Numbered from the stretch's first letter, positions 1,513-31,930 are shown. The stretch: DNA of 32,000 nt from Candidatus Iainarchaeum sp. (GCA_037441475.1 JBBISB010000001.1:485365-517364), one strand, 5' to 3'. Translations and numbers: made by a program. The notes: generated from the sequence alone by a model not told the origin.

Positions 1513-1513
1513 A

Positions 1514-4367: not shown

Positions 4368-4396
4368 AAAAAGCAAAAGAAGGATGTGCATGATTA

Positions 4397-8027: not shown

Positions 8028-8060
8028 GTTTCTTTCCTTCCTTTTTATTTTCCTTTTAAC

Positions 8061-8073
8061 AATAAATATATAC
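8061..8073 (+). promoter_or_regulatory. Candidate archaeal TATA box for a leaderless JAMM transcript
   Basis: aataaatatatac is centred about 27 nt upstream of the ATG at 8095. No SD lies in between. Confidence 0.35.
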
Positions 8074-8094
8074 TTTAAAGACTATATATATTTT

Positions 8095-8484
8095 ATGGCT
8101 GATTGGTATATTTACAAAGACGTTCTTGAAAGCATAATGGAGTTTTCAAAAAGCTTTTACCCTAATGAATTTTCAGGAATGCTAGTTTCTAGAAATAATA
8201 TTTTTCAAGATATATATATAATACCACAAACAAAGAGTAATGAAAATTCAGCAACTATTAGGCTTGACTTTGTACCACTCTCTCTTTCCATTAATGGTTC
8301 AGTTCACTCTCACCCTTCAGGTGGAGGAGAGCCTTCTAGAGAAGATCTTTCTTTCTTCCAATCTAAGGATATTAACATAATTGCCTATTATCCATTCTCT
8401 CTTTACTCCTTTAAGGCCTATGATTCTAATGGTAAAGAGATCAGTTTAGGCGTGATATTACGCGAAGAAAGCAAAAATTTATAA
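8095..8484 (+). CDS. Stand-alone JAMM/MPN+ metalloprotease (AfJAMM / SAMP-deconjugase-like)
   Basis: Complete JAMM motif: E(FSGMLV)...H-S-H-PSGGGEP-S-RE-D (HxHx7SxxD). The ORF-track start at 8026 adds an implausible hydrophobic leader overlapping the divergent SDR start. The ATG at 8095 (MADWYIYKD) is preferred. Confidence 0.85.
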   Translation: MADWYIYKDVLESIMEFSKSFYPNEFSGMLVSRNNIFQDIYIIPQTKSNENSATIRLDFVPLSLSINGSVHSHPSGGGEPSREDLSFFQSKDINIIAYYPFSLYSFKAYDSNGKEISLGVILREESKNL

Positions 8485-8586
8485 ACCTGCCGACACAAAA
8501 AATTTAAACATTTTGTAACATTAGTTATTTTAGAGCAAATAACTTCTATTTTCCAATTTATTTTTTAAAAGGAGGACAAGTTTACC

Positions 8587-9168
8587 ATGCAGTCAGATAC
8601 TAAAAATAATATTAATGAAAATGATGTTTCTTTAAATAAAACAGAAGATGTTTTAGAAAATGAATCTTCTTTAGAAAAAGGTTCTTTAGAAGAGTCTTCT
8701 TTAGAAGAAAACAATAACTCTCAAGAGGAAGAATATTTAAACAAAATTTCTTTTCTAGAAGATCAACTAAAGTTATCCTTAGCAGACTTTTCAAACTATA
8801 AAAAAAGAATGGCAAAGGAGCAAGATAATTTTCTATTCTTAGAAACTTCAAAAATAATTTTAGATTTTCTTTCCTTTAAAGAAACTTTACTAAAAGCCAT
8901 TGAGCATGAAGAAAACATTTCTTCAAAAAACAACCTACTAGAGATAAACAACAATTATGATTTAATACTCTCAAGATTAAATATAAAAAAAATAGATCTT
9001 TTAGGTCTTGATTACGATTACAATACAGCAGAGTGTGTCCAAACATTAAAAGTAGATAAAAAAGAAAAACATAATAAGATACTAGATGTCTTAGAAAACG
9101 CTTATACTTATAAAGATAAAATTATAAAACCAGGAAAAGTAATAATCGGTTTATTTTCGGAGGAATAA
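8587..9168 (+). CDS. grpE: GrpE nucleotide exchange factor
   Basis: DFSNYKKRMAKEQD signature, an acidic low-complexity N-terminus, a strong SD (aaaggagg), and position immediately upstream of dnaK. Confidence 0.9.
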   Translation: MQSDTKNNINENDVSLNKTEDVLENESSLEKGSLEESSLEENNNSQEEEYLNKISFLEDQLKLSLADFSNYKKRMAKEQDNFLFLETSKIILDFLSFKETLLKAIEHEENISSKNNLLEINNNYDLILSRLNIKKIDLLGLDYDYNTAECVQTLKVDKKEKHNKILDVLENAYTYKDKIIKPGKVIIGLFSEE

Positions 9169-11010
<1,842 letters not shown>

Positions 11011-13773: not shown

Positions 13774-14732
13774 ATGTTTAAAAAACTAATATCTAAATTA
13801 AAACCAAAACCAAGGTCCCTTGAAAAAGAAAGAGCAATATATAATGAAAAATTTCATTTTTCTTATGGTTTTAGAGTTAATGACGATAAAAAACTAGATG
13901 TTATAAAAGACATTTATCTTTTTTTAAAGAAAGATAAGCGTTTAGAGTCTTTTGTTTTTGTAGGCAAGGCTCATCACAATAATCAAGGATGTCCTCTTGA
14001 GGTTTATCCTCAAGTTTATCTTCTTTAAAAAAATTAGATCCTAACGTACACAATTATTTTTTAAGGTATGGCTTTTATGGTCTTTTAGAAATTTCTAAAA
14101 AAAATAATTACATTAATTTTAATAATAATATATTAAAAGTTGAAAAATTATATTCTCTTGCGTCAAAGCTACCTTTTGATGAAAAACAAAAGGTCAATGA
14201 GTTTGTAAAATATTTAATAAGAACAGAAAAAATAGGTTCTTTTTCGAATAAACAAATTGAAAGAGAAGTTGAAAGAATTAAAGCAGGGCTATTACAAACA
14301 AAAATAACATCTTCAAAAAAAAGAAAAAGTTGTGATGAAACCTACGGAGGTTTTTTAAGAGCACTTTCTTCAAACACAGCATACTTTACAACTATTGAAA
14401 ATAAACTTTATTTAGAAAAATCACATATAGGAAAGAAAGAGAATTATGCTGGATACAGTAAGCTAGCTCTTGATTTAAGCAACCTTAATGTTTACAGTAT
14501 AGAAACTATTAATGGGAGAAATGTTGTAAGTGAAAAAGCACTTGATTTTTTTGACAGCTATAAAACGTCCATAAACTTATCTGTTACTTCTTACTTTGAA
14601 AGATTAAAAGATAACTATATTAAATATTATCAAAATAAATCTTTTAAAACAGAAGCGCAAAGACAAAAAGCCATACAAAGAATACAAGATATATTTAATA
14701 AAGATAGAATTTCTAATCTATCCAAGAAGTGA
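13774..14732 (+). pseudogene. Hypothetical protein (about 319 aa if repaired) split by one -1 frameshift near the A7 run at 14026-14032
   Basis: The listed 84-aa ORF (frame 1) ends at 14028. A 244-codon frame with no stop and no Met (frame 0, 14001-14732, PNVHNYFLRYGFYGLLEISKK...QRIQDIFNKDRISNLSKK*) follows and overlaps it. 959 nt + 1 = 960, which is divisible by 3. No family was recognised. Confidence 0.55.
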
Positions 14733-14736: not shown

Positions 14737-15761
14737 ATGTACGCGCAAACAAAAATTTCTTTAATGTCTTGTAAAGGGGGACGTAATTTTTCTATAAAAG
14801 TTTTAAATCACTTAAATAGATTTTTAAAAGAAGATAATTTTTCTCCAATTTCTTTAACAGACACAGAAGAGGTTCAGTTTAAACACAGAAATAAAATCTA
14901 ATGTTCTAGAGTCAATAAGAGGTAGAGATGTTTACATTATCCAAGATGTTACAAACACTTCTTTTGGATATTTGGTAAGTGACAACATCCTTGCTTTAAA
15001 AACATTAATCAACTCAGCAAGGATATCAGGCGCATCAAAAATAAATGTTATCTTACCAACCTTTCCATTTTCAAGACAAGATAAATCTTTTTCAAGAGAA
15101 GGGATTACAGCAAAAATGTTTGCTCAAGAAATCGAACTTTTAGGAGTTAATACCTTAATCGCCTTAGATATCCATAACCTTGCAATTGCTGGTTTTTTTG
15201 ATAAATGCATTTTTGAAAATTTAAAAGGTTTTAGAGATATTACAAGATTTGTTAAAAAAAATATGCCTCTAGAAAATCTAGTTGTTTCTTCTCCCGATAT
15301 TGGTGGTCTTAAAAGAGCCGAAGGCTATGCTTCTGAACTTAAAATAGATTTAATCTCAATCTATAAAGAAAGAAGTTATACAAAAATAGATCAAATAGAT
15401 AAAATGTATATTTTAGGAGAGGTGATTGGAAAGAATGTTTTACTTGTTGATGATATGATAGATACAGGTGGAACTCTTTACAATGCAGCTAAACTTCTAA
15501 AAAAAGAGGGTGCAAATGAAATTTATTGCATGTTCCTTGCCTTTCTTTAACTCTCCTTGTCTTGAAAGATTTAATGAACTTTTTGAAAATAAAGTTTTAA
15601 CTTATGTTATAGGCACAAATGCTATTTATCACACAGATGATTTTTTAAAAAACACACCTTGGTTTAAATCAATTGATGTTTCTGATTATTTTGCAAAAGT
15701 TATTTTTAATATCCACACCTCAAAGTCAATTTCTTCTTTACTTAAAGATATAAAAGAGTAA
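14737..15761 (+). pseudogene. prs: Ribose-phosphate pyrophosphokinase (PRPP synthetase) with two +1-type frame disruptions
   Basis: Segment 1 (14737-14900, frame 1) reads MYAQTKISLMSCKGG...TEEVQF. Segment 2 (frame 2, open from 14858) reads NTEIKSNVLESIRGRDVYIIQD...PFSRQDK...VLLVDDMIDTGGTLYNAAKLLKKEGANEIY, which includes the PRPP-binding loop. Segment 3 (frame 0, 15510-15761) reads IACSLPFFNSPCLERF...VIGTNAIYH. The shifts lie near 14878-14884 and 15520-15530. Confidence 0.8.
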
Positions 15762-15857: not shown

Positions 15858-16511
15858 TTGAAAACAGTTATAACAATAATCTTAGTTATGCTTGCACTAG
15901 TTGCAGCAGTTCTTTTTGTTTTGGTTGGTCAAGACAAAGACCAAGCAATAAATCCAGCGGATAACCTACCAGTTAACAATTCTGATTTAATTCCTCCTCA
16001 AGAAATAGTACTTCCTACTGAAGTAATCCCTGTTGATCCGACAATAGATTGTGCAACAGATTTTTCTTGTTTTTCTGGTTATTTATCTTCTTGTAAAAAA
16101 GATGTAAAATATTTACAATCAGAAAAAATAGAATATCCTGCAAATGGAACCAAATATAATTTTTCTTTAGAATATACAATCAATGGTTTAAATCAATTTG
16201 ATGAATGTTTAGTAAGGTTAACTTTAATTGATCATAGAACTTCTTTTTTAGAAATAGAAAGACAAAGATATTTAGCTGAAAATTATACTGAGGCTGGAGT
16301 TTTAGAAATTGAAGATCTATTAAATGTTTCTGCTGGTCACTTAGTTAAAAAAAGCGGGGTTTGTAAATTTGATATTTCTTCACATAATTTAACTTTAACT
16401 AGTTTACAGTTTTTAAATAAAATTATGCAAGGTTATGAAAATTGTTCAGGAGAATTGTTTACATCAACAGGAGATCCTTCTCAAGCACAGTTTTTCATAT
16501 ATGTAAATTAA
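15858..16511 (+). CDS. Secreted or membrane-anchored hypothetical protein (6 Cys)
   Basis: A TTG start lies 7 nt after the aaggtgag SD. The N-terminal signal anchor is MKTVITIILVMLALVAAVLFVLVG, followed by a Pro-rich linker and then a Cys-containing domain. Confidence 0.6.
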   Translation: MKTVITIILVMLALVAAVLFVLVGQDKDQAINPADNLPVNNSDLIPPQEIVLPTEVIPVDPTIDCATDFSCFSGYLSSCKKDVKYLQSEKIEYPANGTKYNFSLEYTINGLNQFDECLVRLTLIDHRTSFLEIERQRYLAENYTEAGVLEIEDLLNVSAGHLVKKSGVCKFDISSHNLTLTSLQFLNKIMQGYENCSGELFTSTGDPSQAQFFIYVN

Positions 16512-16568
16512 TATAGTTTATTAAGAAAAATAGTTTATGAAAAAAAGAAATTATCAACAAGAAAAAAT

Positions 16569-19500
16569 ATGCATAAATCAAAGAAAGCACAGGGTAATCT
16601 AGAGTCTTTGATATTAATAGGGGGTGCAGTATTAATCTCTGTTGTTATAGTTTCTGTTTTAATCTCAATTGGTGGACAAGGAAGAGATGATGCCTCTACC
16701 CAAGGAGATCAAATCTCTTCTTCCACAGATGGTCCATTACCTCCAACAATAGTTTCAGTAAATGCAAGGTATTTTGATGTTATGCAATCGACACTTTAGT
16801 TTCAACAGACAAAGTAGGTTTAATTACTTTTGCATGGAGGCCTTTATCTAAAGAAGGAACCTTTAAACTAGTAATTCAAAATTCAAAAAATGAAGTTTTA
16901 GGAGATTATGATTATGTTGTTACTTATAATTCTGAATTTCAAGATTCTAAAAACTTAAACCCAAACATTTTAACTAATTTAATTGTTTCTGATATTCCTG
17001 TAGGGCAAGGTGTTTGTGGTGACACCTATTATTTATCTATAGATGTTTCTAAGAATAATCAAACCAAAAGTTCTTCAAGATATGCTTTCAGATGGTCTGA
17101 ACAAGGAGAAAAAACTACTTTAGTTTCAAGGCCTGCTTTCTCTCCTTCAGCTGGAACTTATAACATAGCTCAGTTTCCTTTAAATGTTAGCCTAATACAC
17201 GATCCTAGTTATGCAGTTTACTATACAACAGACGGAACTGATCCTATTGTTTCTTCAACAAGAATAATATATTCTGGGGCAATAACTGTTTTGCAAGGAA
17301 CAACTATTAAAGCAGTTTCTGAGTATGCTGGCATTTATTCTGGTGTTTTAACAGGAACTTTCACTGATAGTTATTATACAGTTTCTTCTGTAAATGCAAC
17401 TCCAAGTAGTCAAATAAATCTTCAAGATCCTATTGATGTTTCTTTAGTTACTTCTACTGAACTTTCAACTATTTATTTTCCCTTAGATTCTTCAACACCT
17501 GACTGTTCAGGTAGTTTTACACAGTATACTTCTCCAATAAATGTTTCAAACAATGCAACAATTAAAGCAATTGCTTGTAGAACAAATTATCTTCCAAGTT
17601 CAGTTTCAACATTTACATATACTTTCTTTGTTCCATTAGACCCTGTTGTTATAACTCCTCCTGGTGGATCTTACACCTCTATACAGAAAGTAACTTTAAG
17701 TAACAGTAATGTAGGGGGAACCATAAGGTACACAACAACCGGTGTTGATCCAACAGAAGCAAGTCCAATCTATTCAGGACCAATAAATGTTTCTTCAAGT
17801 AAAACTATAAAGGCAATAGTGTATGTTGGTTCTTTTTCAAGTATAGTTTCTCAAGCAGACTATAACATTACTCTTCCTGCAACTGCTCCGATCTTTAGTC
17901 TGGTTCCTGGAACTTATAATAATCAATCTATTTTACTTAACACAACAACACCCTCTCCTTACACTATAAGATATACTACTGACGGTACTGATCCTGATGA
18001 AGCAAGTAATCTTTATACTGGTTCAGGTGTATATGTTTCAAATAATTTAACTTTAAAAGCAAGAGTCTATAAAACTGATTGGTCTACAAGCCCTGTAACT
18101 ACAGGTGTTTATAACTTTGCTTTATCTGCACCAACTTTTAGTACTTTTCCTGGCGCATACTCTGACTCTCAAGTGGTTTCAATTAATTCTGTTGCAGGCG
18201 TACAGATAAGTTATACTTTAGATGGAAGTAACCCTACACAAACAACTGGTACTTTAATTAACGCAGGAGAGAGCACAACCCTATCACCATTACCTCTGTT
18301 TTAAAAGCAATTGCTTATAAGAATGGTTGGTTATCAAGCCCAATTGCTCAAGGCAATTACACCATTAATGCTCCTGCTGCAAGCCCAGTGTTTTCACCTG
18401 ATGGTGGAACCCATACAAATAGTGTAACTGTTACTTTAAGTTGTGTAACTCCATCAAGCACCATAAGGTACACAACAGATGGAACTACTCCAACAAGAGA
18501 TATTGGAACTATTTATTCTTCTTCATTTAATCTAATCACTACAACAACTGTTAAGGGTGTTTGTTATGCAACTGGTTATTCAACCAGTGCTGTTTCAACA
18601 CAAACCTTTACAATACAAAACCCCCCAGGAGCAGTAACTGTTTCAGGTGGAGGAACATTCTGTAATTCAGCTACCTTAACAGCATCAGGTGGAACTGGAG
18701 GTCTAATATACTACCAAGCTACAACCTCAAATGGAACTTCTACTGCAAATCAAACAACAACTGCAAACATAACTTCATCAGGAACTTATTATTTTAGAGC
18801 GTATAGCTCAACAACAGATCTTTTGGGCACTCAAGGAAGTGCAGCAGTAACAATAAGAACAAATTTTACTGCCCCTACTTCAATAACAGGCACAAATACA
18901 ATCTGTTCTGGTAGTTCTACAACATTAACTGCTCAAGGTGGAGTTTTAGGTACTGTTGCATCTTATCAATGGTTTACTTCTGGATGTGGAATTGGTGCTA
19001 GTGCAGGTACTTCACAAAGTATAACCGTAAATCCAACCACAACTACAAATTATTTTGTTAGAATATCAGGTACATGTAACACAACTACTTGTGTTTCCAG
19101 AACAGTAACTGTTAATTCTCCTCCTACAGTAAATGTTACTCCAGCATCAAGATGTGGTTCAGGAGCAGTTACTTTAGGTGCAACAACTTCACAAGGCACA
19201 ATTGAATGGTATACATCATCAACAGGTGGCTCTCCAGTAGGAACAGGAAATAGTTTTACAACCCCAAGTCTTTCTTCTACAACCACTTATTATGTGGGTG
19301 TTACAGGTGCTACTTGTAACCCATCTTCTAGAACTCCTGTTATAGCAACTATTAATCCTCTTCCAGGAAGTGTTTCTGTAACTTTACAGAGTAGTGGGGC
19401 AGGTACTGCAACAATAGCCGCAAGTGGAGGATCAGGAGTACAATTTATTTCCAAGGAAACACTTCTAATGGCACTTCTGTAGATTTAGGTGGAACTCCTC

Positions 19501-20461
19501 AAACAGTAACTACGAGTGGAACCTATTTTTTCAGATCTAGAAGCACAGAAGGTTGTTGGGGCACTCAAGGTAGTTTAGTTGTAAATATACCTGTTGTTTT
19601 ATCTAATTTAGTTTTAAGTAATAGTCCTTCTTGCTTTAGTTTTAATTCAACAACTTATACTTATAATAGTGTAAGGTATTTAATAAGCACAACAAATAGC
19701 ATAACTGTGACTCTAACAGGCTCAGGAACAATTACAGTAAATGGTTCTCCAGTAATTTCTGGTTCAGCATCAAGTCCAATAAGTATTTCAGATGGTTTAG
19801 AAAAAACAATTACTGTTCAAGTAACTCAAGGAGGTAATTTTGCAACATACACTATAAATGTAAGAAAAATTATTACCACTCATACCGGTACAGCCACGGT
19901 AACTGAAGGAATCTCTGGTGGATTTGCGTGGAGAGTTCATAGATTTACAAGCGGTTCTGGAACTTATAATTCAAACATACCTGTAACAGCTCAATTACTA
20001 GTTGGTGGTGGACCATATAGTGGTGGTGGAGGAAATGCTGGACAATATGTCTATAATGCTAGTTATGCTTTAACCACAGGAAATAAATCTATCACAATTG
20101 GTTCTGGCGGGTATACAACAAATATATGGCCACGTACAAGAATAAGTGGAACTGCCTCTTCATTTGATACAGTAAGTGCATCTGGTGGAATTACTGGTTT
20201 AGAAGGTTATTCTAACGGTAGTGGTGGTGCAAATGGATTAGGAGTAGCAGGTCAAACCTTTGCCCAAGGGGTGCTGGTTCCCCTGGAATTGCAAATTCAA
20301 TAACAGGCTCCACTGTTACTTATGCTAAAGTAGGTAATGGTGGTAATGGAGCTGTAAGTGGAGCTGCTAATACCGGTAATGGTAGAGATGGAGGTTATGA
20401 TTTAACTTTCATTACTGGCGGTACTGGTGTTGTAATTATAAGGGTACAGATACCAGTATAG
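16569..20461 (+). pseudogene. Pilin-anchored giant mosaic adhesin (about 1,298 codons if repaired) interrupted by four -1 frameshifts
   Basis: The class III signal is MHKSKKA|QGNLESLILIGGAVLISVVIVSVLI. Frame segments run 16569-16799 (f0), 16778-18304 (f2), 18262-19482 (f1), 19395-20303 (f0) and 20270-20461 (f2). 3893 nt + 4 = 3897, which is divisible by 3. Recognised by motif: a pilin-1847-like domain, at least six CHB_HEX_C-like repeats (IRYTTDGTDP...Y.GPI...TIKA), Cys-bracketed Ig-like modules, a cadherin-like beta-sandwich, and a glycine-rich C-terminal domain ending GGTGVVIIRV. Confidence 0.75.
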
Positions 20462-20475
20462 TTTTATTTTTTTAT

Positions 20476-21750
20476 TTAAAATAGTTTCTTTTGAAGATCT
20501 TTTAGGTAAAGATTTTCATTAATTTCTTTTTCTTTATTTTCTTTTTCTTCTCCAGTGAAAAATATAAAAGGAGTTCCATAGTTTCCTCCTCCACCAGGAG
20601 AGAAGACAACTAAGTTTTGTCTAAAAGAAAGAATATACTTTGCAATATTTTCATCAATCTTTTTTAATTTTTCAAAAGATATTTTTTGCATAACTTCAAT
20701 CTCTGTATATTTTTCAATAAACCTATCGTATATCTCAATAACCTTTTTATGATTAATATCTTTCTGGTTTATAGCAATTTGAATAACCTGTGCAAGAGGC
20801 ATTAAATATTTATAATCTGGTCTTTTTGTTATTTGTTGTAAAGAAGAGTTTCCTTGAAGTAAAGCCATCTCTTGTGCTCTCTCCAAAACTCCTTTCTTAA
20901 TACTCTTTTTACATAAAGAACATTTCCATTTATTTAAAGTAGCTTGTTTTAAGGTATAATGTTTGTAGCATTTAGAGCAGGCTGTTAAACCATATTTTCC
21001 TTCCTTAGGATTATATCCAACATTATAAACCAGCTTTCCTTTTCTATCTTCTAAAAGATCTTTAAATGATTCTAAATTAGGTTTTTCCATTTCAAGGCAA
21101 ACATACTCTCTCCCTATCCTGTAACTTAAAGGAGAGTGTGAGTCTGAGAATGAAAAAAATTTAATGTTTTTTAATTCAGGTATAATATTTGCAGAAAAGG
21201 TATCTGCAGATAAACCAAGTTCAATAAATTTTATATACTCCCAGTTTTTACCATAGGCTTCTTTTAAAGTATCAAAGTGAGCAAAGATTCCAAAGTAAGG
21301 GGTAAAGACATGTGCTGGAGCAATAATTATTTCTAAGCTTTTACAGATATTTAAAAGATTTTCAGCAGTTGTTTTTAGTTTTGTTCTTCCACTTCCATAG
21401 ATAGACATATCTTGACAAAAAGGTTTTATTTCTTTTTCAAAGTCTTTTATTTGTTTAAAGTTTTTAAAATAAAGAAGATGATGCACTCTTTTTTCGGTTT
21501 CAACTTCTGTTCCTAAAATAAAATATATTTTTTTTCCATTAATCTCTTCTTTATACCTAAAACATCCATCTTCTTCAATTAAGTTTTCTTTAACATGTGC
21601 AAGCCAAACAGGATGAAGGATGTCTGCTGTTGTTAAAACATCTAGTCCTTTCTTTCTAGCTTCAGATGCTAAAAGAGGAATTGTTATGTTTTTTGAGCAT
21701 GCTGCTGCATATGGGGAATGATAATGAAGATCACAGTTAAATATTTTCAT
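20476..21750 (-). CDS. Endonuclease Q (PHP-like fold plus Zn finger; cleaves at deaminated bases)
   Basis: It recalls Pyrococcus EndoQ along the whole length: CDLHYHS, RVHHLL, PAHVFTP, ELGLSAD, SDSHSP, GKYGLTACSKCYKHYTL...WKCSLCKKSIKKGVLER and SPGGGGNYG. The ATG at 21750 is preferred over the listed TTG at 21768, which would overlap the upstream gene. Confidence 0.8.
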   Translation of the reverse strand: MKIFNCDLHYHSPYAAACSKNITIPLLASEARKKGLDVLTTADILHPVWLAHVKENLIEEDGCFRYKEEINGKKIYFILGTEVETEKRVHHLLYFKNFKQIKDFEKEIKPFCQDMSIYGSGRTKLKTTAENLLNICKSLEIIIAPAHVFTPYFGIFAHFDTLKEAYGKNWEYIKFIELGLSADTFSANIIPELKNIKFFSFSDSHSPLSYRIGREYVCLEMEKPNLESFKDLLEDRKGKLVYNVGYNPKEGKYGLTACSKCYKHYTLKQATLNKWKCSLCKKSIKKGVLERAQEMALLQGNSSLQQITKRPDYKYLMPLAQVIQIAINQKDINHKKVIEIYDRFIEKYTEIEVMQKISFEKLKKIDENIAKYILSFRQNLVVFSPGGGGNYGTPFIFFTGEEKENKEKEINENLYLKDLQKKLF

Positions 21751-21754
21751 AATT

Positions 21755-22045
21755 TCACACAACACCAAATACTTTTAAGATAAGCATAACTCCAAGACCA
21801 GCAGGCCCAAAGATAGCAGTAACTATTAAGGTTATTAGAAAAGGAAGTTTAATGTTTAAGACATAGTAAAAGAAAAGTAAACCCACAACCCCCACCACAC
21901 TATTAACAATTACATTTTTTAAAACTTTTATAAAAATAATAGTAAGAATGATTAAACCTAGGGCATACACAAGGTATATAGGGTTAAAAACAAATGTCTT
22001 TGTTGTCTCTGTTGCAGTTTCTGTTGCTAAAAATAATAAATCCAT
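21755..22045 (-). CDS. Small membrane protein, BofA-like
   Basis: Three TM helices. The C-terminal half (VLKNVIVNSVVGVVGLL...TAIFGPAGLGVMLILKVF) resembles the BofA family pattern (..TAI.GilGiPG......K.F). Its stop lies 4 nt from the EndoQ ATG. Confidence 0.5.
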   Translation of the reverse strand: MDLLFLATETATETTKTFVFNPIYLVYALGLIILTIIFIKVLKNVIVNSVVGVVGLLFFYYVLNIKLPFLITLIVTAIFGPAGLGVMLILKVFGVV

Positions 22046-22247
22046 GTTTGTTCACCTTATATATCTATTAATAGGTATTTATTAAATATCTTGTGTTTTT
22101 ATAATAATAATTCTCTTTATAAGTATTTTGTATTTTATAATATATATGAGTAAAGTAACTATTCTTTAAATAAAACAAATATTTATTAATTTTAAAAAAA
22201 TCTAATGTAAATTTAAAAAATAAAAAATTATAAAAAAATGATTAAAT

Positions 22248-22913
22248 ATGCAAGAAAATACCTCTTTTGACGAACAAGAAATAAAAAAACAATATGATTT
22301 AAAAAATCTAAGAGACTTAATAGCTAAATCTCTATCTAAGGGTTCAAAAACAGATGATGATTTAAAAAAAGAATTTCCTGAAGCTAAATATGAAGAAATC
22401 TTAGCTGTTTTAAAAAACATGCTTTCTTTAAAATTAATTAAAAAAGATGGTTTTCCTGTTAAATACTCTCTTTCAGATGAAATTTCTAAAACCTTAGAAC
22501 AAAGAAAAGAACTTTCAAATACTGATAGAAACCCTATAAAGGTATCCATAATAATTGAATCTAAGTCTGATAATAAAACAGTTTTAAGAGAGGCTATGGA
22601 AAAAATACTTTCTTCTCTTAAAGAGGATAAAGAGTATTTTGTTTATGATTCTTCTTTAGCAGAAATAATTGTTCATGATGATCTTTTTTCAACATACATA
22701 TCAGCTGAGGTTTCATGTAAAGATCTTTTTAATCTTTTCCGGCTTATTTACTACTATGGAGTAACCTCTATAGATGTTTTAAAACCTGAAAAATTAAATG
22801 TAGGTATTTCAGATCTTCAAAACTCTCTTCAAACAATAGTTGACATGGTTCATGGTTATGCTGGAATGATTTATGAGTTGAAACAAAAGAATGACCTTTT
22901 ATCTAAAAAGTGA
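22248..22913 (+). CDS. Hypothetical cytoplasmic protein, possible N-terminal winged-helix
   Basis: An intact 221-aa ORF with an AT-rich divergent promoter region upstream. The N-terminal 80 aa are helix-rich (LIAKSLSKGSKTDDDLKKEF...VLKNMLSLKLIKKDGFPVKYSL). No family was recognised. Confidence 0.5.
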   Translation: MQENTSFDEQEIKKQYDLKNLRDLIAKSLSKGSKTDDDLKKEFPEAKYEEILAVLKNMLSLKLIKKDGFPVKYSLSDEISKTLEQRKELSNTDRNPIKVSIIIESKSDNKTVLREAMEKILSSLKEDKEYFVYDSSLAEIIVHDDLFSTYISAEVSCKDLFNLFRLIYYYGVTSIDVLKPEKLNVGISDLQNSLQTIVDMVHGYAGMIYELKQKNDLLSKK

Positions 22914-23103
22914 TTTTAAGTAATTATAAAGGTAGTTTGTATTCTAAATGAACAAAGGTTTGCATTAGCAATGACACCCTTTATAAACTATTTTTATAAG
23001 ATGTGTTTTATTATAAATAATCTATTTTATAAGTCGCACTAATTTATAAAAAATAAAAATGCTTTTATTTTGATTGCATCTTTATTTTTTAAAAGGCAGA
23101 TAT

Positions 23104-23772
23104 TTATAGTTGTTTATCAATTGTTGCTTTAAAGACTTGGTAACTTTGAGCACCTGATATCTTTTGATTACCAACAATAAAGCCTGGTGTTCCTGTAATC
23201 CCGTTTGCTATAGCTTCTTGTTTTTGATTTTCAATCTTTGTTAAAAATTTATTTTCTGCTAAACATTTTTCAAAGGAAGAAACATCTAAACCAATTTCTT
23301 GTGCATACTTTGTAAATTATTCTTTAGCAAGGTTTGCTTGATTTTCATAAAGTTTTTTCTTATATTCAAAGAACTTATTTTGTTCTCCAGCACATTCAAC
23401 TGCATTTGCTGCTTTGATGTCTGTATTGTTTCTTGTAAAGTGTTTGTAGATGTATTTTACTTTTCCTGTCTCTATATAGTCAGTTTTTATATTTTCAAAA
23501 GTCGTATCATCTATTTGATATCTTTTACAGAAATGACATGTAAAGGATGAGTATTCAGTAATTGTTAATGGTGCATCTTTATTTCCTAAGAAATAAATAT
23601 TGTTTTCAGCATCTATTTTTTCTTTTAAATTTGTTTTTTCTTCAGTTTTACTTCCTGTAACATTTAATATTAATAATAATATTAAAATAGCAAGTATTGC
23701 TCCTAAAAGAATTTGTATGTATATTAGTTTATTATCTTTTTTATGTGTTGTTTGGTTTTTTGTTTTTTTCAT
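23104..23772 (-). pseudogene. Membrane-anchored DsbA-family thiol:disulfide oxidoreductase with an in-frame TAA (complement of 23317-23319)
   Basis: The listed 151-aa ORF has a TM anchor and the active site FTCHFC (CxxC). The same frame continues after the TAA for 70 codons: FTKYAQEIGLDVSSFEKCLAENKF...ANGITGTPGFIVGNQKISGAQSYQVFKATIDKQL*. That tail includes the cis-Pro loop (TGTP) typical of DsbA. 23317-23104 = 213, which is divisible by 3. Confidence 0.8.
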
Positions 23773-24098
23773 AAGTAATTACCTTTTTTTATTTTTTTAA
23801 AAAATTTGTTAAAAAATATGAAAAGTTCTAAAAGTAATTTATAAGGTGATATCTTATATTTTCCTTTTTTTTAAAGTAATTTTTTCATATTTCTTAATTG
23901 AGGCTAGGTTTTTTTCTTTTTTTTTAAAAAGTTTTTTTTGTTAAAAAATGAATAACAACCTTCTAATTATATTTGTAAGGTAAATATTTTTAAATACATA
24001 TTAATCTACTTTAATTTAACTTAACCGTAGTTTTTTTGCAATAGTTTATAAATGTTTTTATATAATAATCTATTATAATATATAGAAGGTGAGATGTT

Positions 24099-25259
24099 TT
24101 GGAAAAAAGATATAAGGCGCAAGTTTCTGTTGAAATGCTTGCTATTGTTGGTGTGGTTATCTTAGGAGCTCTTGTTTTTGCTTCATATTATTTATCAAGT
24201 GTTAATAGAAATATTGATACTTTAGAGGGTCTTGATCCTGATTTTTCTAAACTTCTTCCAAATGATCCTTCTGGTACCTTTCCAGGTCTTCCTGGTTTTC
24301 CTGGTGGGGGAGGTCCAAATCCTTTATTATGTGGTAACAATGTAATTAATACTGGTGAGCAGTGTGATGGAATAAATTTAAACGGACAAACCTGTATTGG
24401 TTTAGGTTTTGGTGCTGGTTCTTTAACTTGTAATCTTAATTGTACTTTTAATGCTAGTGGCTGTTCTGGTTATTCTGCTGCTTGTGGAAATAATATTTTA
24501 GAAGAATTTGAAGAATGTGAGATGAATAATGAAACAGACCCATCATCTCCAATGTATAGTGGAAATCCTTCTTGTACTGCATATTGTATTGATAATGAGT
24601 TAGGAATGACTGGTTCAGGAAATATTTCTTGTAACAGTAATAGTTGTTCTGTAGATTATTCTGCATGTGTTTGTAGTAACACTTATTTTAAGCCATTTCT
24701 TTTAATATTATCTGAAGATAGTGGTAGTGCAAATCAAAATATTGGTTTTCCAACAAACCTTTCAGTAGATTTTGATTCAACTGGTGCTGGTACTAAATCT
24801 TTGTGGGTTGATGTAAATGTAACTGTTAAAATATCTGGTTTTTATTCAGACAAATGTAAATACGATAATACACCAATACCTGCCACTCAAAACGGTTTAT
24901 TTATTAAAAAATTCCTTTCAGCTGAATCTAATGTAAATTATATAAAAGATATAAGTTGTTCAGCAGACGGAGTTTATATTTTTATTTTCAAAGGTGTGGA
25001 TAACTTAAATAATATTTCTGATGATGATTTATTCGAATTCACAGTACCTCTTCAAGATTCTTTATTTTTTTGTGATGCAGTCACAACAACAGATGGCTCA
25101 CTTGATGTTTGTATAAATAGATATGAAGGAGGAGCAACAGCTGCTTCTGGAGAAGTTGCATTCTTCATAAATCAACCAGATGTCTCTGAATTTACTGGAG
25201 AATCATGTATTACTACAAATGGTTTAGGTGAAGTTTGTTTTTCATTAGGTTTTAATTAA
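24099..25259 (+). CDS. Class III signal-peptide (pilin-like) protein with Cys-rich repeats (Myxococcus cysteine-rich repeat/DUF4215-like)
   Basis: A TTG start lies 7 nt after the aaggtgag SD; no in-frame ATG would retain the leader. MEKRYKA|QVSVEMLAIVGVVILGALVFA is followed by a Gly/Pro linker. Two CGNN(V/I)...GE(Q/E)C...C...C repeats follow. The protein has 20 Cys in total. Confidence 0.7.
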   Translation: MEKRYKAQVSVEMLAIVGVVILGALVFASYYLSSVNRNIDTLEGLDPDFSKLLPNDPSGTFPGLPGFPGGGGPNPLLCGNNVINTGEQCDGINLNGQTCIGLGFGAGSLTCNLNCTFNASGCSGYSAACGNNILEEFEECEMNNETDPSSPMYSGNPSCTAYCIDNELGMTGSGNISCNSNSCSVDYSACVCSNTYFKPFLLILSEDSGSANQNIGFPTNLSVDFDSTGAGTKSLWVDVNVTVKISGFYSDKCKYDNTPIPATQNGLFIKKFLSAESNVNYIKDISCSADGVYIFIFKGVDNLNNISDDDLFEFTVPLQDSLFFCDAVTTTDGSLDVCINRYEGGATAASGEVAFFINQPDVSEFTGESCITTNGLGEVCFSLGFN

Positions 25260-25331
25260 AAACCTAAAAACACTTCTTTTTTTATTTCTTAATTAGTTAA
25301 CTTTTTAAATAAGTAGGTATATAATATATAT

Positions 25332-27731
25332 ATGAAAAAAAGAATATTTTTAATAATATTAATAATTTTCTTAACTTTTTTATTACTTCCTTTGATATAT
25401 TCAAAGGCAGCACCAATAGATAACATTCCTATTATTTCTCCAATAAATAAAGCAAAACCACCTGTTTTTGAAGTAATGCCACCGATAGTGGATGAAGTTT
25501 GTTTTGGTTATGTTTGTCTTCCACCAGGAGAAACTCCTATTTCTTTAGGTTTAAATAGTTTGTCTGAAAAATCAACAAGGACTTTAGAAACAACCACTGT
25601 TTCTAACAAAGTGAACACTGCTCCAACTACAGGCACCTATAACATACCTGTTCTTTTAGTTAAGTTTCCTAATCTTTCTGCTCCTTCAAACTATAATGTT
25701 TCAATGTATAATGATGTTTTTAATTCAAGTAATTATTTATCAGGAAACGGTATAAGTGTAAAAGAATATTTTAAAAAAAGCTCTTACAATCAATTAAACA
25801 TCACATATGATGTTTATGATTGGAGAACAATGCCTAACAATTATAGTTTTTATTATACAAACAATAATGTGCATCAACTTGTTGTTGATGCAATGAATAC
25901 TTTTGGAACAGGTTCAAATGCTATTGACTTTACTCAATATGATTCTGATAACGATGGAAGGATAGATGGTGTTATTCTTGTTCATGCTGGATTTCCTGGA
26001 CAAGAACAAAGTGGAAATATTTTATCTCAAGCAAGACTTTATAGAGGAACTACAATTTATAGTATTCAAGGTAAGTTGTATGGTAATGTTGCTGTAATTC
26101 CTTCAAGACACACTGCTTTTGCTTGTAATTCCTGGAAACAGACTTTCAACTACCCAACAGATTGTAGAACCTCGATAGATGTTGCTGTTCACGAGTATTC
26201 TCATGTTCTTGGTCTTCCAGACTTTTATGCTATTACTTATTCTGGCCAACAAGCCGGAACTGGTCTTGGTGGGCATACTATTATGAATATGAATAGTAAT
26301 GCTATTCAAGATGTAAAAAAACCAGTTAACTTCGATTCTTGGTCAAAGTTTTTCTTTGGTTGGCTTACCCCAACTGTAATAAATAGTGCTTCTCAAGCAA
26401 ACATTTATTCTTTAACCTCCTATGATACAACAAATAGTGCTTTTATTTTACATAACCCAAACACCATGGGTGCTAAAGAATTTTTTATAATAACAAACAG
26501 ATATATTTCAACAACTTCTTTGGATAGATATCTTTTTGGTACGATACCTCCTCTATTTAATATTAATGGAGGTATAGACATTCTTCACATTGATGAAAAC
26601 TATATTGATTACACTTACTCTGGTCCTCTTGCTTTCAACAGTATAATGTTTGATCCTGATGGGGATTACTATGATGATAATGTAAGTCATCCTGGTATTG
26701 TCTTTGAACAAAATATTTTAGAACCCGTATTTCCACCTGGTAGAAGTGCAGCAGATTTATATACTACTGAATTACCTCAACCAGGGGTTTGTAGTTTATA
26801 TGTATTTGAAGGTAAGTTTGATAATATTGCAAGACACAGTATGCCTTCAAGTTGTCCTGTTTATAGAGACACAACCTCCAGAAGTTATTTAACCCTTCAA
26901 GATAGCGGTATAAGAGTATATGGTTGGTCTGTTGGTGGACAAACCATGCAAGCCTACTTAACAGTAGATGAACCACTACCCTTAATTAGCCAAATACTTT
27001 CTCCTTCTAATGGTTCTAGTTTTGGTCTTCAAGATAATATTGATTTTCAAGGTAGTTATCAAAACAATATTGGTAACACCTATTGTTTATGGCAATATAG
27101 AAAACTAGGCACAAGTAACTTTGTTTCTTTCTCAAATCAATGTCAAACCACAAAAACCCCTTCTCAATTAAATTTAAGTGAAGGAAGTTACAGCATAAGA
27201 TTTAGAGTTACTGATGAATTTAATAGACAACATACTTCCACAATATTAATAACTATAGTAACATCTACCACTTTATATAATGTAATAACCTCCCCTATTG
27301 AAAATAAAAGTTATCCTTTTAAAGAACCAGTTACTTTCAATGCAAGTTACTATAATAACCAAGGAGATGTAACTTGTGAGTGGAAATATAATAATTTAAT
27401 TATTTCAAATGAATGTAATTTTACAGACACCCCTTTTAACTTAGGTATTGCATCTCCTCCATACAACAGTATGGTGGTAATAAACAGTTCTCTTCCTTCC
27501 TTTACTATTTTAAACAAAACTTTACAAACCAGTCCTTTGTTTAAAGAACCTTTAAAAGTAACTGCCCCAACTATCAAATCTCCAAGCTATTTAGGTAACT
27601 TCCCTGCAGGCTTTACAAGAACAATTACTTTAACTACAACAGATGCAAGTAATGCTTCTTTTGTATCTTCAGTAGATATGAAGCTCTGTTTATGCCTTCT
27701 TGCAAACAATAACCAGGCTGCTGTAAGGTAG
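25332..27731 (+). CDS. Secreted M6-family (immune inhibitor A-like) zinc metalloprotease with two C-terminal Ig-like modules
   Basis: Signal peptide MKKRIFLIILIIFLTFLLLPLIYSKA. The zinc site HEYSHVLGLPDFY matches the M6 HExxHxxGxPDxY signature. There are two similar beta modules of about 100 aa (SPSNGSSF...CLWQY...; SPIENKSYPF...CEWKY...). The last 15 or so codons lie inside the direct repeat flanking hicBA. Confidence 0.8.
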   Translation: MKKRIFLIILIIFLTFLLLPLIYSKAAPIDNIPIISPINKAKPPVFEVMPPIVDEVCFGYVCLPPGETPISLGLNSLSEKSTRTLETTTVSNKVNTAPTTGTYNIPVLLVKFPNLSAPSNYNVSMYNDVFNSSNYLSGNGISVKEYFKKSSYNQLNITYDVYDWRTMPNNYSFYYTNNNVHQLVVDAMNTFGTGSNAIDFTQYDSDNDGRIDGVILVHAGFPGQEQSGNILSQARLYRGTTIYSIQGKLYGNVAVIPSRHTAFACNSWKQTFNYPTDCRTSIDVAVHEYSHVLGLPDFYAITYSGQQAGTGLGGHTIMNMNSNAIQDVKKPVNFDSWSKFFFGWLTPTVINSASQANIYSLTSYDTTNSAFILHNPNTMGAKEFFIITNRYISTTSLDRYLFGTIPPLFNINGGIDILHIDENYIDYTYSGPLAFNSIMFDPDGDYYDDNVSHPGIVFEQNILEPVFPPGRSAADLYTTELPQPGVCSLYVFEGKFDNIARHSMPSSCPVYRDTTSRSYLTLQDSGIRVYGWSVGGQTMQAYLTVDEPLPLISQILSPSNGSSFGLQDNIDFQGSYQNNIGNTYCLWQYRKLGTSNFVSFSNQCQTTKTPSQLNLSEGSYSIRFRVTDEFNRQHTSTILITIVTSTTLYNVITSPIENKSYPFKEPVTFNASYYNNQGDVTCEWKYNNLIISNECNFTDTPFNLGIASPPYNSMVVINSSLPSFTILNKTLQTSPLFKEPLKVTAPTIKSPSYLGNFPAGFTRTITLTTTDASNASFVSSVDMKLCLCLLANNNQAAVR

Positions 27732-27751
27732 AAAAACAAAGCTTTAAAATT
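27685..27751. repeat. Direct repeat copy 1 flanking the hicBA cassette (covers the protease stop codon)
   Basis: Core 27689-27719 tttatgccttcttgcaaacaataaccaggct matches 28255-28285 at 30 of 31 positions. A second block, 27731-27751 gaaaaacaaagctttaaaatt, matches 28296-28317 with 1 indel and 1 mismatch. Confidence 0.85.
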
Positions 27752-27783
27752 TGTTTATATCTATAATATATTAGGTGATATAA

Positions 27784-28008
27784 ATGTTAAATCAATCTTT
27801 TGATATTGTTATTGAAGAAGATAAAAAAACTAAACAATTTTATGGTTCAGTTCCTAATCTTCCTGGTTGTTATTCTACAGGTAATTCTGTTGAAGAATTA
27901 ATTACAAATATGAAAGAAGCAATTTCTTTATACTTAGAAGTTAAAAAAGAAAATAAATCGAAAGTATTAGCTAGCAATGTTTTAGGTATGGTAAGGGTAA
28001 CATTATGA
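27784..28008 (+). CDS. hicB: HicB-family antitoxin (UPF0150-type, no DNA-binding extension)
   Basis: FYGSVPNLPGCYSTGNSVEELITNMKEAISLYLE matches the HicB N-terminal domain pattern. ATGA overlap with the downstream hicA. Confidence 0.8.
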   Translation: MLNQSFDIVIEEDKKTKQFYGSVPNLPGCYSTGNSVEELITNMKEAISLYLEVKKENKSKVLASNVLGMVRVTL

Positions 28009-28232
28009 GTGAGCTTCCTGTTGTGTCTTCTTTAAAATTAGTAAAGGTAGTTATCATGTTAGGTTTTAAAGAACTAAGACAGAAAGGATCTCATAAAATA
28101 TTTTCTCATTCTGATGGTAGATTTTTAGTAATTCCTATTCATTCAAATAAACCAATTCCTGCTGGTCTTTTAAATAAAATTATAAAACAAGATTTAAGGC
28201 TTACAAGAGATGAGTTTTTAAAACTTTTATAA
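28005..28232 (+). CDS. hicA: HicA-family mRNA interferase toxin
   Basis: LGFKELRQKGSHKIFSHSDGRFLVIPIHSNKPIPAGLLNKIIKQ matches the HicA/YcfA pattern (GF...GSH...P.H....i..g.l..Il.q). Confidence 0.8.
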   Translation: MSELPVVSSLKLVKVVIMLGFKELRQKGSHKIFSHSDGRFLVIPIHSNKPIPAGLLNKIIKQDLRLTRDEFLKLL

Positions 28233-28250
28233 GTTGTATAGCTATTAAGA

Positions 28251-28317
28251 TCTATTTATGCCTTCTTGTAAACAATAACCAGGCTCTTTTTTATTGAAAA
28301 ACCAAAACTTTAAAATT
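28251..28317. repeat. Direct repeat copy 2 flanking the hicBA cassette
   Basis: See copy 1. In this copy the core is followed by ctcttttttatt (oligo-T). The gcct...aggc pair could form a weak hairpin, so the arrangement looks terminator-like. Confidence 0.85.
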
Positions 28318-29193
28318 ATTTTTAAAAATAGTTATTAGAGGTTATCGATTATAATCGTCAGAAACAACCACTCTTGACGATTTAAATACCCTTAATTAAA
28401 ATTCATTTTTTCTTCTATCTAATATTTTCTTATAATTTAAGAAAAAACATTAATATATTGTTTTTTAACTCTTCTAACTAACCTTTGTGCTAATAGGCTT
28501 GCATTACTCAAAAGATTTAAAAAGGTCATGAGTAATACTTGTTGTTGAGTAATACAAGTTATAGATATTTATATAATTGGCTAAATATATCTTTTATAAC
28601 TCTAAATAACCCCTTTTTGTTTCTTTAAGGTAAAGTAGAGAAATATTACTTAAAAGTAAGGGTAAATTAAAGAAAAAACACTCTCTTTATATATTTCTAT
28701 ATAATATATTATATATAGAGTAATTAAAGATAGGTTATACAAGAGGTTTATACCCTTAATTGCTTTAAAGACCTTTTTTTAAAAACATATATGTAAATGA
28801 GAGAACATAATATCTGATATAGGAATATTTACTTTAAGAGATGTATAATATGTTAAGCTTTTCTTTTAAACTGACCTTTAATAAGGATAAGAAGAAGGCT
28901 ACTTTTACTTCTTTAAAGTGAACAGTTATTTTTTAAGAATATTCCTTTAAAAAGGTATCGTTTGCTTTCAAAAAAAGAAAGGTTTTTAAACAAAACTGCT
29001 CTTTAATTATCTTATACAAGGCATCAGTATCTATACCTTTCTTTTTAGGGTATTGTTTACTTGAGTGCTTTATGCAAGACGAATCTGTTTTAGATCTTTT
29101 AACATTGTTTTTTTGTTAAAGACAAGAAATAACAAACCATGCAGGTTCAATCTTTGTTTTAGTATAAAAAAACAAAAAAAAGGTGAATAAAAA

Positions 29194-31710: not shown

Positions 31711-31742
31711 GTACTGCACAATAAAGAATAAAGAGAAAAATT

Positions 31743-31772
31743 AAAAAGGTTTTTTTAAAAAAACCTTTTTTC
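31743..31772 (+). terminator. Palindromic hairpin plus oligo-T terminator after the S-layer gene
   Basis: aaaaaggttttttt/aaaaaaaacctttttt is a near-perfect palindrome, followed by further T runs. Confidence 0.6.
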
Positions 31773-31930
31773 TTTCTTTTTGTTTTTTCCTTTTTTTTTA
31801 TTTTTAAATTTTTATAATTTTAATTCTATTTTCTTAAGTAAATTTTTATTTTTTTAAATATATTTTTTTATTTTATGTTAATTTATTTTTCTTATTAGTA
31901 TATTTTCTTGTTTAATATTATATTATTTAT

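Follow-up and report, generated by a model that had tools for sequence, protein, structure and literature searches.

A modular archaeal type IV pilin gene with an adhesin-type extension, probably recently inactivated, in a Candidatus Iainarchaeum genome

INTRODUCTION

A life attached to other cells is commonly assumed for DPANN archaea, and few of the molecules that make the contact are known. In a 32,000-nucleotide stretch of the genome of a Candidatus Iainarchaeum sp. (GCA_037441475.1, JBBISB010000001.1:485365-517364; hereafter the window, with positions counted from its first letter), a first-pass annotation made from the sequence had pointed to a region at 16569-20461 on the plus strand. 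Its conceptual product opens like a type IV pilin, continues as a string of adhesion-type modules and is interrupted four times by a change of reading frame. Is this one gene, what would it make, and are the interruptions present in the organism? Our answer, which we consider likely, is that the region is one modular archaeal type IV pilin gene, that this copy has recently been inactivated, and that its product is an adhesin candidate. The window corresponds to 485540-517539 of CAZGHU010000001.1 (GCA_964526055.1), and the flanking genes were read there.

RESULTS

Reading frame and repaired product

Six-frame translation of 16500-20520 was used to define five open segments.

16569-16796, plus strand: segment 1, frame 0
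16778-18301, plus strand: segment 2, frame 2
18262-19479, plus strand: segment 3, frame 1
19395-20300, plus strand: segment 4, frame 0
20222-20458, plus strand: segment 5, frame 2

All four transitions between them are -1, that is, one base is missing at each. Comparison with paralogous and orthologous sequence placed the junctions as follows (the lost base in square brackets).

16777/16778, plus strand: frameshift site 1, base lost from an Asp codon, GA[T]TGT, inside the beta-sandwich of the pilin module
18275-18281 (about 18277), plus strand: frameshift site 2, within repeat 5 of the extension, one base lost from ACA[A]ACCCT (which one is ambiguous)
19438-19439, plus strand: frameshift site 3, G lost, GGAG[G]TACA, inside the second GGSG..IYFQ module
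20271-20272, plus strand: frameshift site 4, G lost from a G run, GGGG[G]TGCT, inside the glycine-rich domain

The sites placed in this way by homology all lie within the ranges that the first-pass annotation had given for its four -1 breaks, and the motifs and coordinates that it listed were all found in the sequence. When one base was restored per junction, a 3,897-nt frame was obtained that encodes 1,298 residues with no internal stop; its N-terminal string, MHKSKKAQGNLESLILIGGAVLISVVIV, is found at 16569. Without repair, ordinary reading stops at the TAG at 16797-16799 and yields a product of 76 residues.

The repaired junctions resemble those of relatives (P0001 and P0003, described below) and paralogs. 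With the slash marking the junction, site 1 reads RYFD/CYAID, compared with ANYLD/CETID in P0001 and PYAN/CVSAT in the paralogous pilin. Repaired site 2 reads GESTNPITITS, compared with GESTVPITSTS in both P0001 and P0003, and repaired site 3 reads ASGGSGGTIYFQG, compared with ATGGSGGTIYFQG in P0001 and ASGGTGGLIYYQ in the internal paralog. A fragment open reading frame (ORF) at 19707-20303 (P0270) is recorded in both NCBI and Logan. In the repaired product, which has 24 N-X-S/T sequons and 15 cysteines, 41% of the residues are Thr, Ser or Gly. Because of this amino acid composition, the higher guanine-plus-cytosine content of the gene (35-38% versus about 29%) was not taken as evidence of transfer.

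Pilin module

The N-terminal part of the repaired product is divided as follows.

16569-16589, plus strand: start codon and short, positively charged leader MHKSKKA
16590-16682, plus strand: hydrophobic N-terminal pilin helix QGNLESLILIGGAVLISVVIVSVLISIGGQG, assigned from AlphaFold2 helices and homology to paralogs
16734-17098, plus strand: globular part of the pilin module, a beta-sandwich (residues ~56-177) in which Cys71 and Cys150 are conserved

Residues 1-177 are 41% identical, over the full length, to a 173-residue stand-alone pilin encoded in the same window at 1847-2368. This pilin scores 29.6 bits for Class_IIIsignal (PF04021) and ends exactly where the adhesin extension begins. In KKA/QGNLESLILIGG, the leader, the small residue at -1, the Q/E/L pattern and the hydrophobic stretch align with those of accepted pilins. 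An alignment of 27 pilin sequences, which takes in pilins that pass PF04021, shows Q8, E12, L14, G18, G19, C71 and G97 to be invariant and K6, G9 and L11 to be nearly so. Cleavage by a prepilin peptidase is predicted after A7 and before Q8, a position deduced from a QxSxExxxL-type motif that we take to be the class III motif of PF04021.

An AlphaFold2 model of residues 1-199 has helices at 11-35 and 38-53 and a nine-strand sandwich at 60-174/175, with a mean predicted local distance difference test (pLDDT) score of 82.7 and values mostly above 90 in the strands. A profile search with the pilin module among 1.84 billion representative proteins gave 699 matches; the matches to the entire module come mostly from stand-alone pilins (140-200 residues), with modular forms of 350-1,433 residues besides. 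Judged from these matches, the pilin module occurs both alone and with extensions of many lengths. In a homology search, the N-terminal 188 residues as query gave one match, and the C-terminal 190 residues likewise gave one, too few to be informative. Together, the paralogy, the alignment and the model indicate a pilin identity stronger than the first-pass annotation could see.

Adhesion-type extension

Behind the pilin module, the repaired product continues with the following parts.

17129-18615, plus strand: six tandem CHB_HEX_C_1/Fn3_assoc beta-sandwich repeats, residues ~188-683 (Pfam)
18619-18858, plus strand: first GG(S/T)G..IYYQ..TSNGTS..SGTYYFR module, residues 685-764 (from the sequence)
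18865-19356, plus strand: two Cys-bracketed Ig_7 (CHU_C-associated Ig-like) domains, residues 767-930 (Pfam)
19357-19592, plus strand: second module, GGSG..IYFQ..TSNGTS..SGTYFFR, residues 931-1009, containing site 3 (from the sequence)
19596-19868, plus strand: cadherin-like beta-sandwich, residues 1011-1101 (Pfam PF12733)
19869-20461, plus strand: C-terminal glycine-rich domain and stop codon, residues 1102-1298, containing site 4

Profile searches of the repaired translation thus found adhesin-type domains. CHB_HEX_C_1 scores 205.7 bits and Fn3_assoc 205.3 bits, each in six stretches, so that the chitobiase-like repeats (at least six) recognized in the first-pass annotation are borne out. 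The Cys-bracketed modules match Ig_7 in three stretches, with 111.3 bits on the isolated stretch (cut-off, 27.3) and 91.3 bits on the whole protein. The cadherin-like sandwich, which had also been recognized there, gives 35.9 bits for PF12733 on the isolated segment (cut-off, 24.2; E = 1e-8) and E = 2.3e-7 on segment 4. Both GG(S/T)G..IY(Y/F)Q modules are present in the sequence as had been described, each about 80 residues long, and flank the Ig_7 pair. Neither of them has a family of its own. The first is conserved in P0001-P0004, and in the 326-residue stretch that holds it Pfam gave Ig_7 only (three stretches, the best at 169-247). An NCBIfam search on the modules gave no match.

The product has the composition by which modular pilins are defined (PMC8179133), namely, a pilin module followed here by six CHB_HEX_C_1/Fn3_assoc repeats, Ig_7 and the cadherin-like domain, the latter families all above their cut-offs. 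The architecture of the intact protein would accordingly be a class III signal and pilin module (residues 1-177) fused to an extension of ~1,120 residues, in which six CHB_HEX_C/Fn3_assoc repeats are followed by two Ig_7 domains flanked by two related modules, by the cadherin-like domain and, distally, by the glycine-rich domain.

The glycine-rich domain of the window copy is the most degenerate in the family. Its LVVGGGGGGG motif has five residues missing, and this degeneracy possibly reflects relaxed constraint. AlphaFold2 modeled the C-terminal 288 residues with low confidence (pLDDT 59.7), and the Foldseek matches of that model are meaningless. The glycine-rich domain of P0019 matches phage families phrog_2295 and phrog_863, of which at least one belongs to the tail category. 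As a side observation, a 14-bp perfect hairpin, CCACUGUUACUUAU/GUAGGUAAUGGUGG, lies at 20309-20342 on the plus strand, inside the region that encodes the glycine-rich domain.

Intact relatives

The repaired product was searched against 5.8 billion proteins, and five intact relatives encoded in a single frame were found.

P0001, 1,734 residues: intact, single-frame, same pilin N-terminus
P0002, 1,479 residues: intact, single-frame, same pilin N-terminus
P0003, 1,433 residues: intact, single-frame, same pilin N-terminus
P0005, 1,539 residues: intact, single-frame, same pilin N-terminus, C-terminus of RCC1 repeats
P0019, 970 residues: intact, single-frame, with PF04021, PF12733 and PF21722 on record

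All five start with the class III signal and pilin module that had been proposed for the window gene, and all five align colinearly across the four repaired junctions. Because such intact, single-frame relatives with the same N-terminus exist, the pilin-adhesin fusion is, by sequence comparison, a real and conserved family of archaeal modular pilins. As far as found, the family is restricted to the Forterrea branch of Iainarchaeota. The orthologs are about 60% identical to the window copy at the amino acid level, which is too distant for an estimate of the ratio of nonsynonymous to synonymous substitution rates.

The 1,734-residue ortholog belongs to Candidatus Forterrea multitransposorum (Iainarchaeota, DPANN), whose genome is complete (CP045477.1). 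This genome and the window share the gene order GrpE, DnaK, DnaJ, (Prs), RtcB, a hypothetical protein of ~220 residues, the adhesin-pilin and an MJ0043_C protein. In Ca. Forterrea, too, the gene is linked to the pilus locus. The conserved upstream neighbor is the following gene.

15858-16511, plus strand: 217-residue protein with an N-terminal membrane helix

It is 42% identical to the product of a 223-residue gene that precedes the intact Ca. Forterrea ortholog, and Pfam and NCBIfam gave no match for it.

A scan of metagenomes revealed further intact members of 1,734, 1,479, 1,534 and 966 residues, and many copies cut by contig ends. On one large contig (JGI [Joint Genome Institute] Ga0334898_1000022; 331,976 bp), three modular-pilin paralogs were observed (L058, L059, L066), two of them at contig ends. 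This suggests that the repeat-rich modular-pilin genes routinely break assemblies and, hence, may be undercounted.

Outside the family, the best matches to the repeat region are bacterial surface proteins, with 30-40% identity over ~40% of the query, from Cloacimonadota, Latescibacterota, Desulfonema, Spirochaetes and Bacteroidales. The first-pass description of the modules as bacterial in style therefore agrees with the nearest matches outside the family; the implied picture of a one-off mosaic does not, since the fusion is an established, lineage-specific family of Iainarchaeota.

Reality of the deletions

Whether the four bases are missing from the organism or from the data was addressed with independent assemblies and with the other genes of the region. 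Logan assemblies of runs SRR11582162 and SRR11582163 are identical to the window wherever they overlap it.

Up to 17613: Logan contig SRR11582162_3978
11002-17613: Logan contig SRR11582163_10392
~18454-31956: Logan contig SRR11582162_20858

Site 1 was reproduced base for base in both runs, and sites 3 and 4 were reproduced in SRR11582162 (contig SRR11582162_20858). This identity rules out an artifact of assembly or polishing for sites 1, 3 and 4. A systematic error at the read level would escape such a comparison, because the assemblies may share reads. A pattern scan of JGI metagenomes with both versions of site 1 (extra base present or absent) found no near-identical intact allele.

The Logan contigs of both runs end exactly at 17613, and the next one begins at ~18454. 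In the region matching 17613-18454, the Ca. Forterrea ortholog has extra tandem repeat blocks of ~250 residues. Since no 21- to 31-mer is repeated within the window, collapse of intragenic repeats was ruled out as the cause of the break at 17613, and the cause must come from outside the window. The 840-nt stretch (repeats 3-5) probably branches in the assembly graph due to variants or paralogs elsewhere.

The adhesin gene is not the only broken gene. Within ~50 kb, five genes carry ~15 frameshifts, comprising 13 single-base deletions (one of them a net -1 from a 4-nt gap) and 2 insertions.

16569-20461, plus strand: adhesin, four -1 shifts
6115-7290, plus strand: TctA-family transporter, six net single-base deletions near 6369, 6425, 6540, 6940, 6957 and 6999
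14749-15761, plus strand: prs, ribose-phosphate pyrophosphokinase, three frames, two +1 shifts (extra G at ~14871, extra T at ~15526)
13774-14729, plus strand: hypothetical gene, -1 shift near 14001-14025
L053 15390-16901 (toxin-antitoxin pair), ~2.6-4.1 kb past the 3' end of the window, minus strand: AbiEii toxin, three frames, two -1 shifts

The shifted frames of the TctA gene still match the intact, 395-residue Forterrea ortholog, and the corrected path contains no nonsense codon. The Forterrea ortholog of prs is intact (340 residues) and lies between dnaJ and rtcB, which shows that prs has also moved. The second part of the hypothetical gene at 13774-14729 has 243 codons without ATG, GTG or TTG and a weak DUF2281 match, and a short inverted repeat, CTTGAGG/CCTCAAG, lies at its frameshift junction. 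The AbiEi antitoxin partner of the toxin (263 residues) is intact. About 45 other genes in the ~50 kb have no frameshift, including those for DnaK, DnaJ, GrpE, RtcB, RFC, a 799-residue protease and an 838-residue S-layer protein. Slippage at long homopolymers was rejected as an explanation: five runs of at least six identical bases in the adhesin gene are untouched, as are runs of 6-8 bases in dnaK, the M6 peptidase gene and others.

Disrupted relative to its intact, syntenic 1,734-residue ortholog, and with three of its shifts reproduced in Logan, the window copy is a probable pseudogene. Because four single-base deletions break the frame and ordinary translation ends so early, it is most likely non-functional and recently inactivated, in a genome that is losing other accessory genes too.

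Several observations weigh against this reading of the region as an inactivated pilin-adhesin gene. The first concern its identity. The class III signal had been called bona fide, and while the pilin identity stood, the profile score did not: PF04021 gives 13.9 bits (13.1 in a second scoring) against a Pfam cut-off of 23.7, compared with 23.9-29.6 bits in its paralogs within the window; ortholog P0019 and relative P0121 are recorded as members of the family. A Foldseek search with the pilin model against the PDB gave generic Ig/FN3 sandwiches, none with E <= 1e-3, and no solved pilins. Similarly, the terminal glycine-rich domain falls short in the window copy, in which Gly_rich_2 (PF21722) scores 20.2 bits against a cut-off of 24.3 (E = 6.5e-4; profile positions 3-224 of 226), whereas it is on record for orthologs P0001, P0002, P0004 and P0019. 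Finally, cleavage, filament assembly and adhesion of the family members are inferred from sequence. The others concern the deletions. Site 2 is the sole site outside the Logan contigs, in the uncovered gap at 17614-18453, and all assemblies may share their reads or the type of library behind them. Every indel that can be placed is a length change of a short homopolymer (runs of 1-5), a signature that some sequencing chemistries leave as well. Fifteen frameshifts without a single nonsense codon in five genes are odd for neutral decay; 3.7-4.5% of substitutions in the adhesin gene would give a stop, and the open repaired frame bounds neutral divergence at ~2%.

Is the gene, then, intact in the organism, with the four -1 shifts and the other indels of the window being systematic read errors, such as undercalls in short homopolymers by a flow-based or otherwise indel-prone platform? 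The absence of nonsense codons, the excess of deletions over insertions, the confinement of the placeable indels to runs of 1-5 identical bases and the fully kept coding signal in the shifted frames are all in line with this, and the NCBI metagenome-assembled genome (MAG) and the Logan contigs were possibly built from the same runs. Yet hits by error would be expected roughly in proportion to gene length, and all 15 fall in five genes that total ~8 kb, with none in the ~45 others; by our own estimate, the chance that all hits beyond the first in each gene would land in the same genes is far below 1e-4. Read error is disfavored because random error would not concentrate in this manner. Moreover, the runs of 6-8 identical bases, unaffected as described above, and the identical sequence from two separate runs argue against it, and the broken genes are of a dispensable kind (transporter, toxin, adhesin, prs). 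We consider read error unlikely, and at the same time the most serious of the alternatives. The concentration of frameshifts in dispensable-type genes favors real decay under relaxed selection, and a real, recent inactivation of the adhesin copy is, in our judgment, probable, with considerable room for doubt. The breakage by indels alone stems either from a flaw in the data of a public MAG that has gone unrecognized or from mutation with an unusual spectrum.

Broken relatives elsewhere

Disrupted members of the family were also observed in other populations. A P0005-type gene (JGI Ga0334893_1000816, 6250-9500; L067) has lost 28 nt between direct repeats (ATTAT), and a run of five T in it has contracted to four. 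MAG STF1_257 has one copy interrupted by a nonsense codon (TTA to TAA; L010 7427) and a paralog (L015 ~2730) that lacks a single G in the helix-coding region; the coverage of this MAG, judged from contig names, is only ~5-fold. The split of P0004 into ORFs of 216 and 1,192 residues was rejected as a frameshift, being due to a scaffold gap of Ns. These independent disruptions of different kinds suggest that the gene is easily lost in natural populations. Together with the breakage in the window, they suggest that it is dispensable or counterselected under some conditions, and recurrent breakage could help to show how contact with a host is acquired and given up by symbionts of this kind.

Display on a filament or on the cell

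The window opens with a filament locus, placed at 1-5222 by the first-pass annotation and confirmed by its Pfam content.

21-5222, plus strand: type IV filament (Epd-like) locus
21-608 and 592-1512, plus strand: two T2SSF platform genes
1847-2368, 2561-3001, 4397-4879 and 4860-5222, plus strand: four Class_IIIsignal pilins above cut-off
3243-4367, plus strand: prepilin peptidase, Peptidase_A24 plus Arc_PepC

A T2SSE ATPase gene lies directly upstream of the window (L001 5674-7572). The adhesin gene is located ~11 kb from this locus and outside it. Furthermore, a second T2SSE ATPase (770 residues; L053 17022-19334) and a small class III signal protein (L053 14489-14857) are encoded ~1.7-6.5 kb past the window, and therefore the genome has at least two loci related to type IV filaments.

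From the domain anatomy and from bacterial modular pilins (PMC8179133), we propose how an intact family member would work. The A24/Arc_PepC peptidase would remove the leader before Q8. The Epd-like machinery, consisting of the ATPase, both platform proteins and the other pilins, would then take up the hydrophobic helix, which would enter the filament beside the stand-alone pilin from which the module evidently derives. The beta-sandwich chain of ~1,120 residues would form a long stalk carried on the filament, and the glycine-rich domain at its far end would be the probable binding part, with a ligand on a host cell or surface. Such a bulky subunit would most plausibly be incorporated rarely or at or near the tip. 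Both attachment to a host and display at the tip are proposed roles of the pilin-adhesin.

Alternatively, the family could be a cell-anchored surface protein, in which the class III signal and helix serve processing and envelope anchoring and the stalk projects from the cell body. Archaeal sugar-binding proteins that carry class III signals have been proposed to be anchored in this way, and the keyword-retrieved passages of a census preprint (10.64898/2026.04.22.720090) give a count of 4,364 candidate binding proteins. An extension of ~1,120 residues cannot fit on every filament subunit, and the distance of the gene from the pilus locus points in the same direction. However, the 177 N-terminal residues correspond to a full-length stand-alone pilin, including the globular sandwich and the conserved cysteines, the gene is likewise linked to the pilus locus in Ca. 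Forterrea, and bacterial modular pilins with grafted modules have been shown to be filament components (PMC8179133). We regard cell anchoring as rather improbable and prefer incorporation into a filament.

Recoding and phase variation

The shifts could also be decoded or put to use, by programmed -1 frameshifting, by transcriptional slippage or editing, or by reversible phase variation, so that full-length protein is sometimes made. The four shifts share one direction, the repaired frame is free of stops, and TctA, with its six -1 shifts, still matches its ortholog in the shifted frames. Just downstream of site 4, there is a strong hairpin (z = -3.72; 0 of 200 shuffles as stable). However, an X XXY YYZ heptamer is present in none of the four permitted windows, the folding z-scores downstream of sites 1 and 3 are +0.42 and +1.23, and that of site 2 (-1.88) is equal to one control. 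With neither a slippery heptamer nor a consistent downstream structure, a canonical -1 frameshift signal was rejected. Furthermore, P0001, P0002, P0003, P0005 and P0019 are single-frame at all four positions, showing that the shifts are not conserved, and if four or six inefficient events had to follow one another, hardly any product would result. Programmed frameshifting of the adhesin is unlikely.

For phase variation, broken relatives in other populations would look like switchable surface genes; the sites, however, lie outside the simple-sequence tracts that support it, and the disruptions in the relatives are of different kinds (28-nt deletion, nonsense codon). Altogether, we consider decoding or regulated use of the shifts very improbable. 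There is similarly only a slim chance that this archaeon carries many genes with their coding information split among frames by single-base deletions and still expresses them via an undescribed recoding or a transcript-level base insertion; if this were true, a giant pilin-adhesin would be made despite four shifts.

Finally, that the five segments are separate small genes, as gene callers had it (annotated products of 76, 337, 364 and 198 residues), was ruled out and has virtually no chance of being right, for no ATG, GTG or TTG occurs among the first 171 codons of segment 2 or anywhere in segment 5, Pfam domains and the second GGSG..IYFQ module span junctions, and the single-frame orthologs are colinear over all four of them.

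Genomic surroundings

At its 3' end, the adhesin gene is adjoined by a gene for a PHP-domain/MJ0043_C protein (20476-22045, minus strand). It scores 248 bits for TIGR00375, below the cut-off of 326.6, and has a counterpart with 87% identity at the same position in Ca. Forterrea. It is followed in the window by a gene for a 96-residue membrane protein with a weak TctB-like match. A pair of genes spans 24099-27731 on the plus strand, the first for a 386-residue protein and the second for a 799-residue secreted Peptidase_M6. The 386-residue protein has a class III-like N-terminus, MEKRYKA/QVSVEMLAIVG (PF04021, 13 bits), and Cys-rich CGNN..GE.CD repeats, and may be a second functionalized pilin-like protein. 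Farther downstream on the plus strand are a HicB/HicA toxin-antitoxin pair at 27784-28232 and an 838-residue S_layer_C protein at 29194-31710. The ~960 nt between them (28233-29193) contain no plus-strand ORF of at least 70 residues and no transfer RNA or Rfam match, and scans of the whole window for transfer RNAs and Rfam families found nothing.

DISCUSSION

The family described here, in which a putative adhesion stalk of 1,000-1,500 residues is joined straight to a pilin and which is conserved beside the pilus genes in the Forterrea lineage of Iainarchaeota, is a concrete, testable candidate for a DPANN device of contact with hosts or surfaces. What is new, on the basis of the sequences compared, is the combination of a complete Epd-type pilin module with extensions of up to ~1,560 residues built from domain families of bacterial surface proteins, and its restriction, as far as found, to the Forterrea branch. 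In the searchable literature, we found no description of a CHB_HEX_C/Ig_7/cadherin/Gly-rich pilin family; this fusion is likewise absent from the keyword-retrieved passages of the census preprint (10.64898/2026.04.22.720090), and a keyword search of the accessible text of PMC5905446 gave nothing on pili, adhesins, frameshifts or pseudogenes.

According to the same passages of the preprint, archaeal type IV filament system 1 (Epd-like), in which the platform is split into two genes, occurs in methanogens, Thermococcales and DPANN, and class III signal proteins with adhesin-like or galactose-binding domains are found in Epd-like loci. The window has the same parts as system 1, as known from the Epd-like pili of Methanococcus, an assignment made by Pfam content only. 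The class III sugar-binding proteins are similar in that a functional extracellular domain stands behind a class III signal and helix and depends on filament-like machinery. They carry a solute-binding domain and no globular pilin module, in contrast to the complete pilin module and repetitive beta-sandwich stalk found here.

The extension itself resembles surface proteins of Bacteroidota, Cloacimonadota, Latescibacterota and other bacteria, which use the same CHB_HEX_C_1/Fn3_assoc/Ig_7 repeat families. Those proteins, however, are exported and anchored by bacterial routes, many with a type IX secretion system sorting domain (PF18962), and none starts with an archaeal pilin module. Like PilY1/PilC of bacterial type IVa pili, the family members are large and putatively adhesive, and PilY1 is presented at the pilus tip. 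PilY1, however, is made as a protein of its own and docks on minor pilins, and the adhesin described here is joined covalently to a pilin; no sequence similarity between them was found.

A close parallel is provided by the bacterial modular pilins (Raynaud et al. 2021, PMC8179133), a set of more than 1,200 proteins with 264 architectures, the largest of 860 residues. A role of their modules in adhesion, and display of these at the tip, have been proposed or demonstrated, with PilB and PilC of Streptococcus sanguinis as examples. That survey searched with a bacterial motif (IPR012902), and archaea are absent from its text; given the archaeal-type N-terminus, the family described here would not be expected in that data set. 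In contrast to the bacterial proteins, these are known from sequence and carry an archaeal Epd/DUF361-type pilin module, lengths of 970-1,734 residues and at least 13 domains. The family would thus carry the idea of the modular pilin over from bacteria, where it has been documented until now, into archaea and to much greater lengths, with up to 1,734 residues compared with 860.

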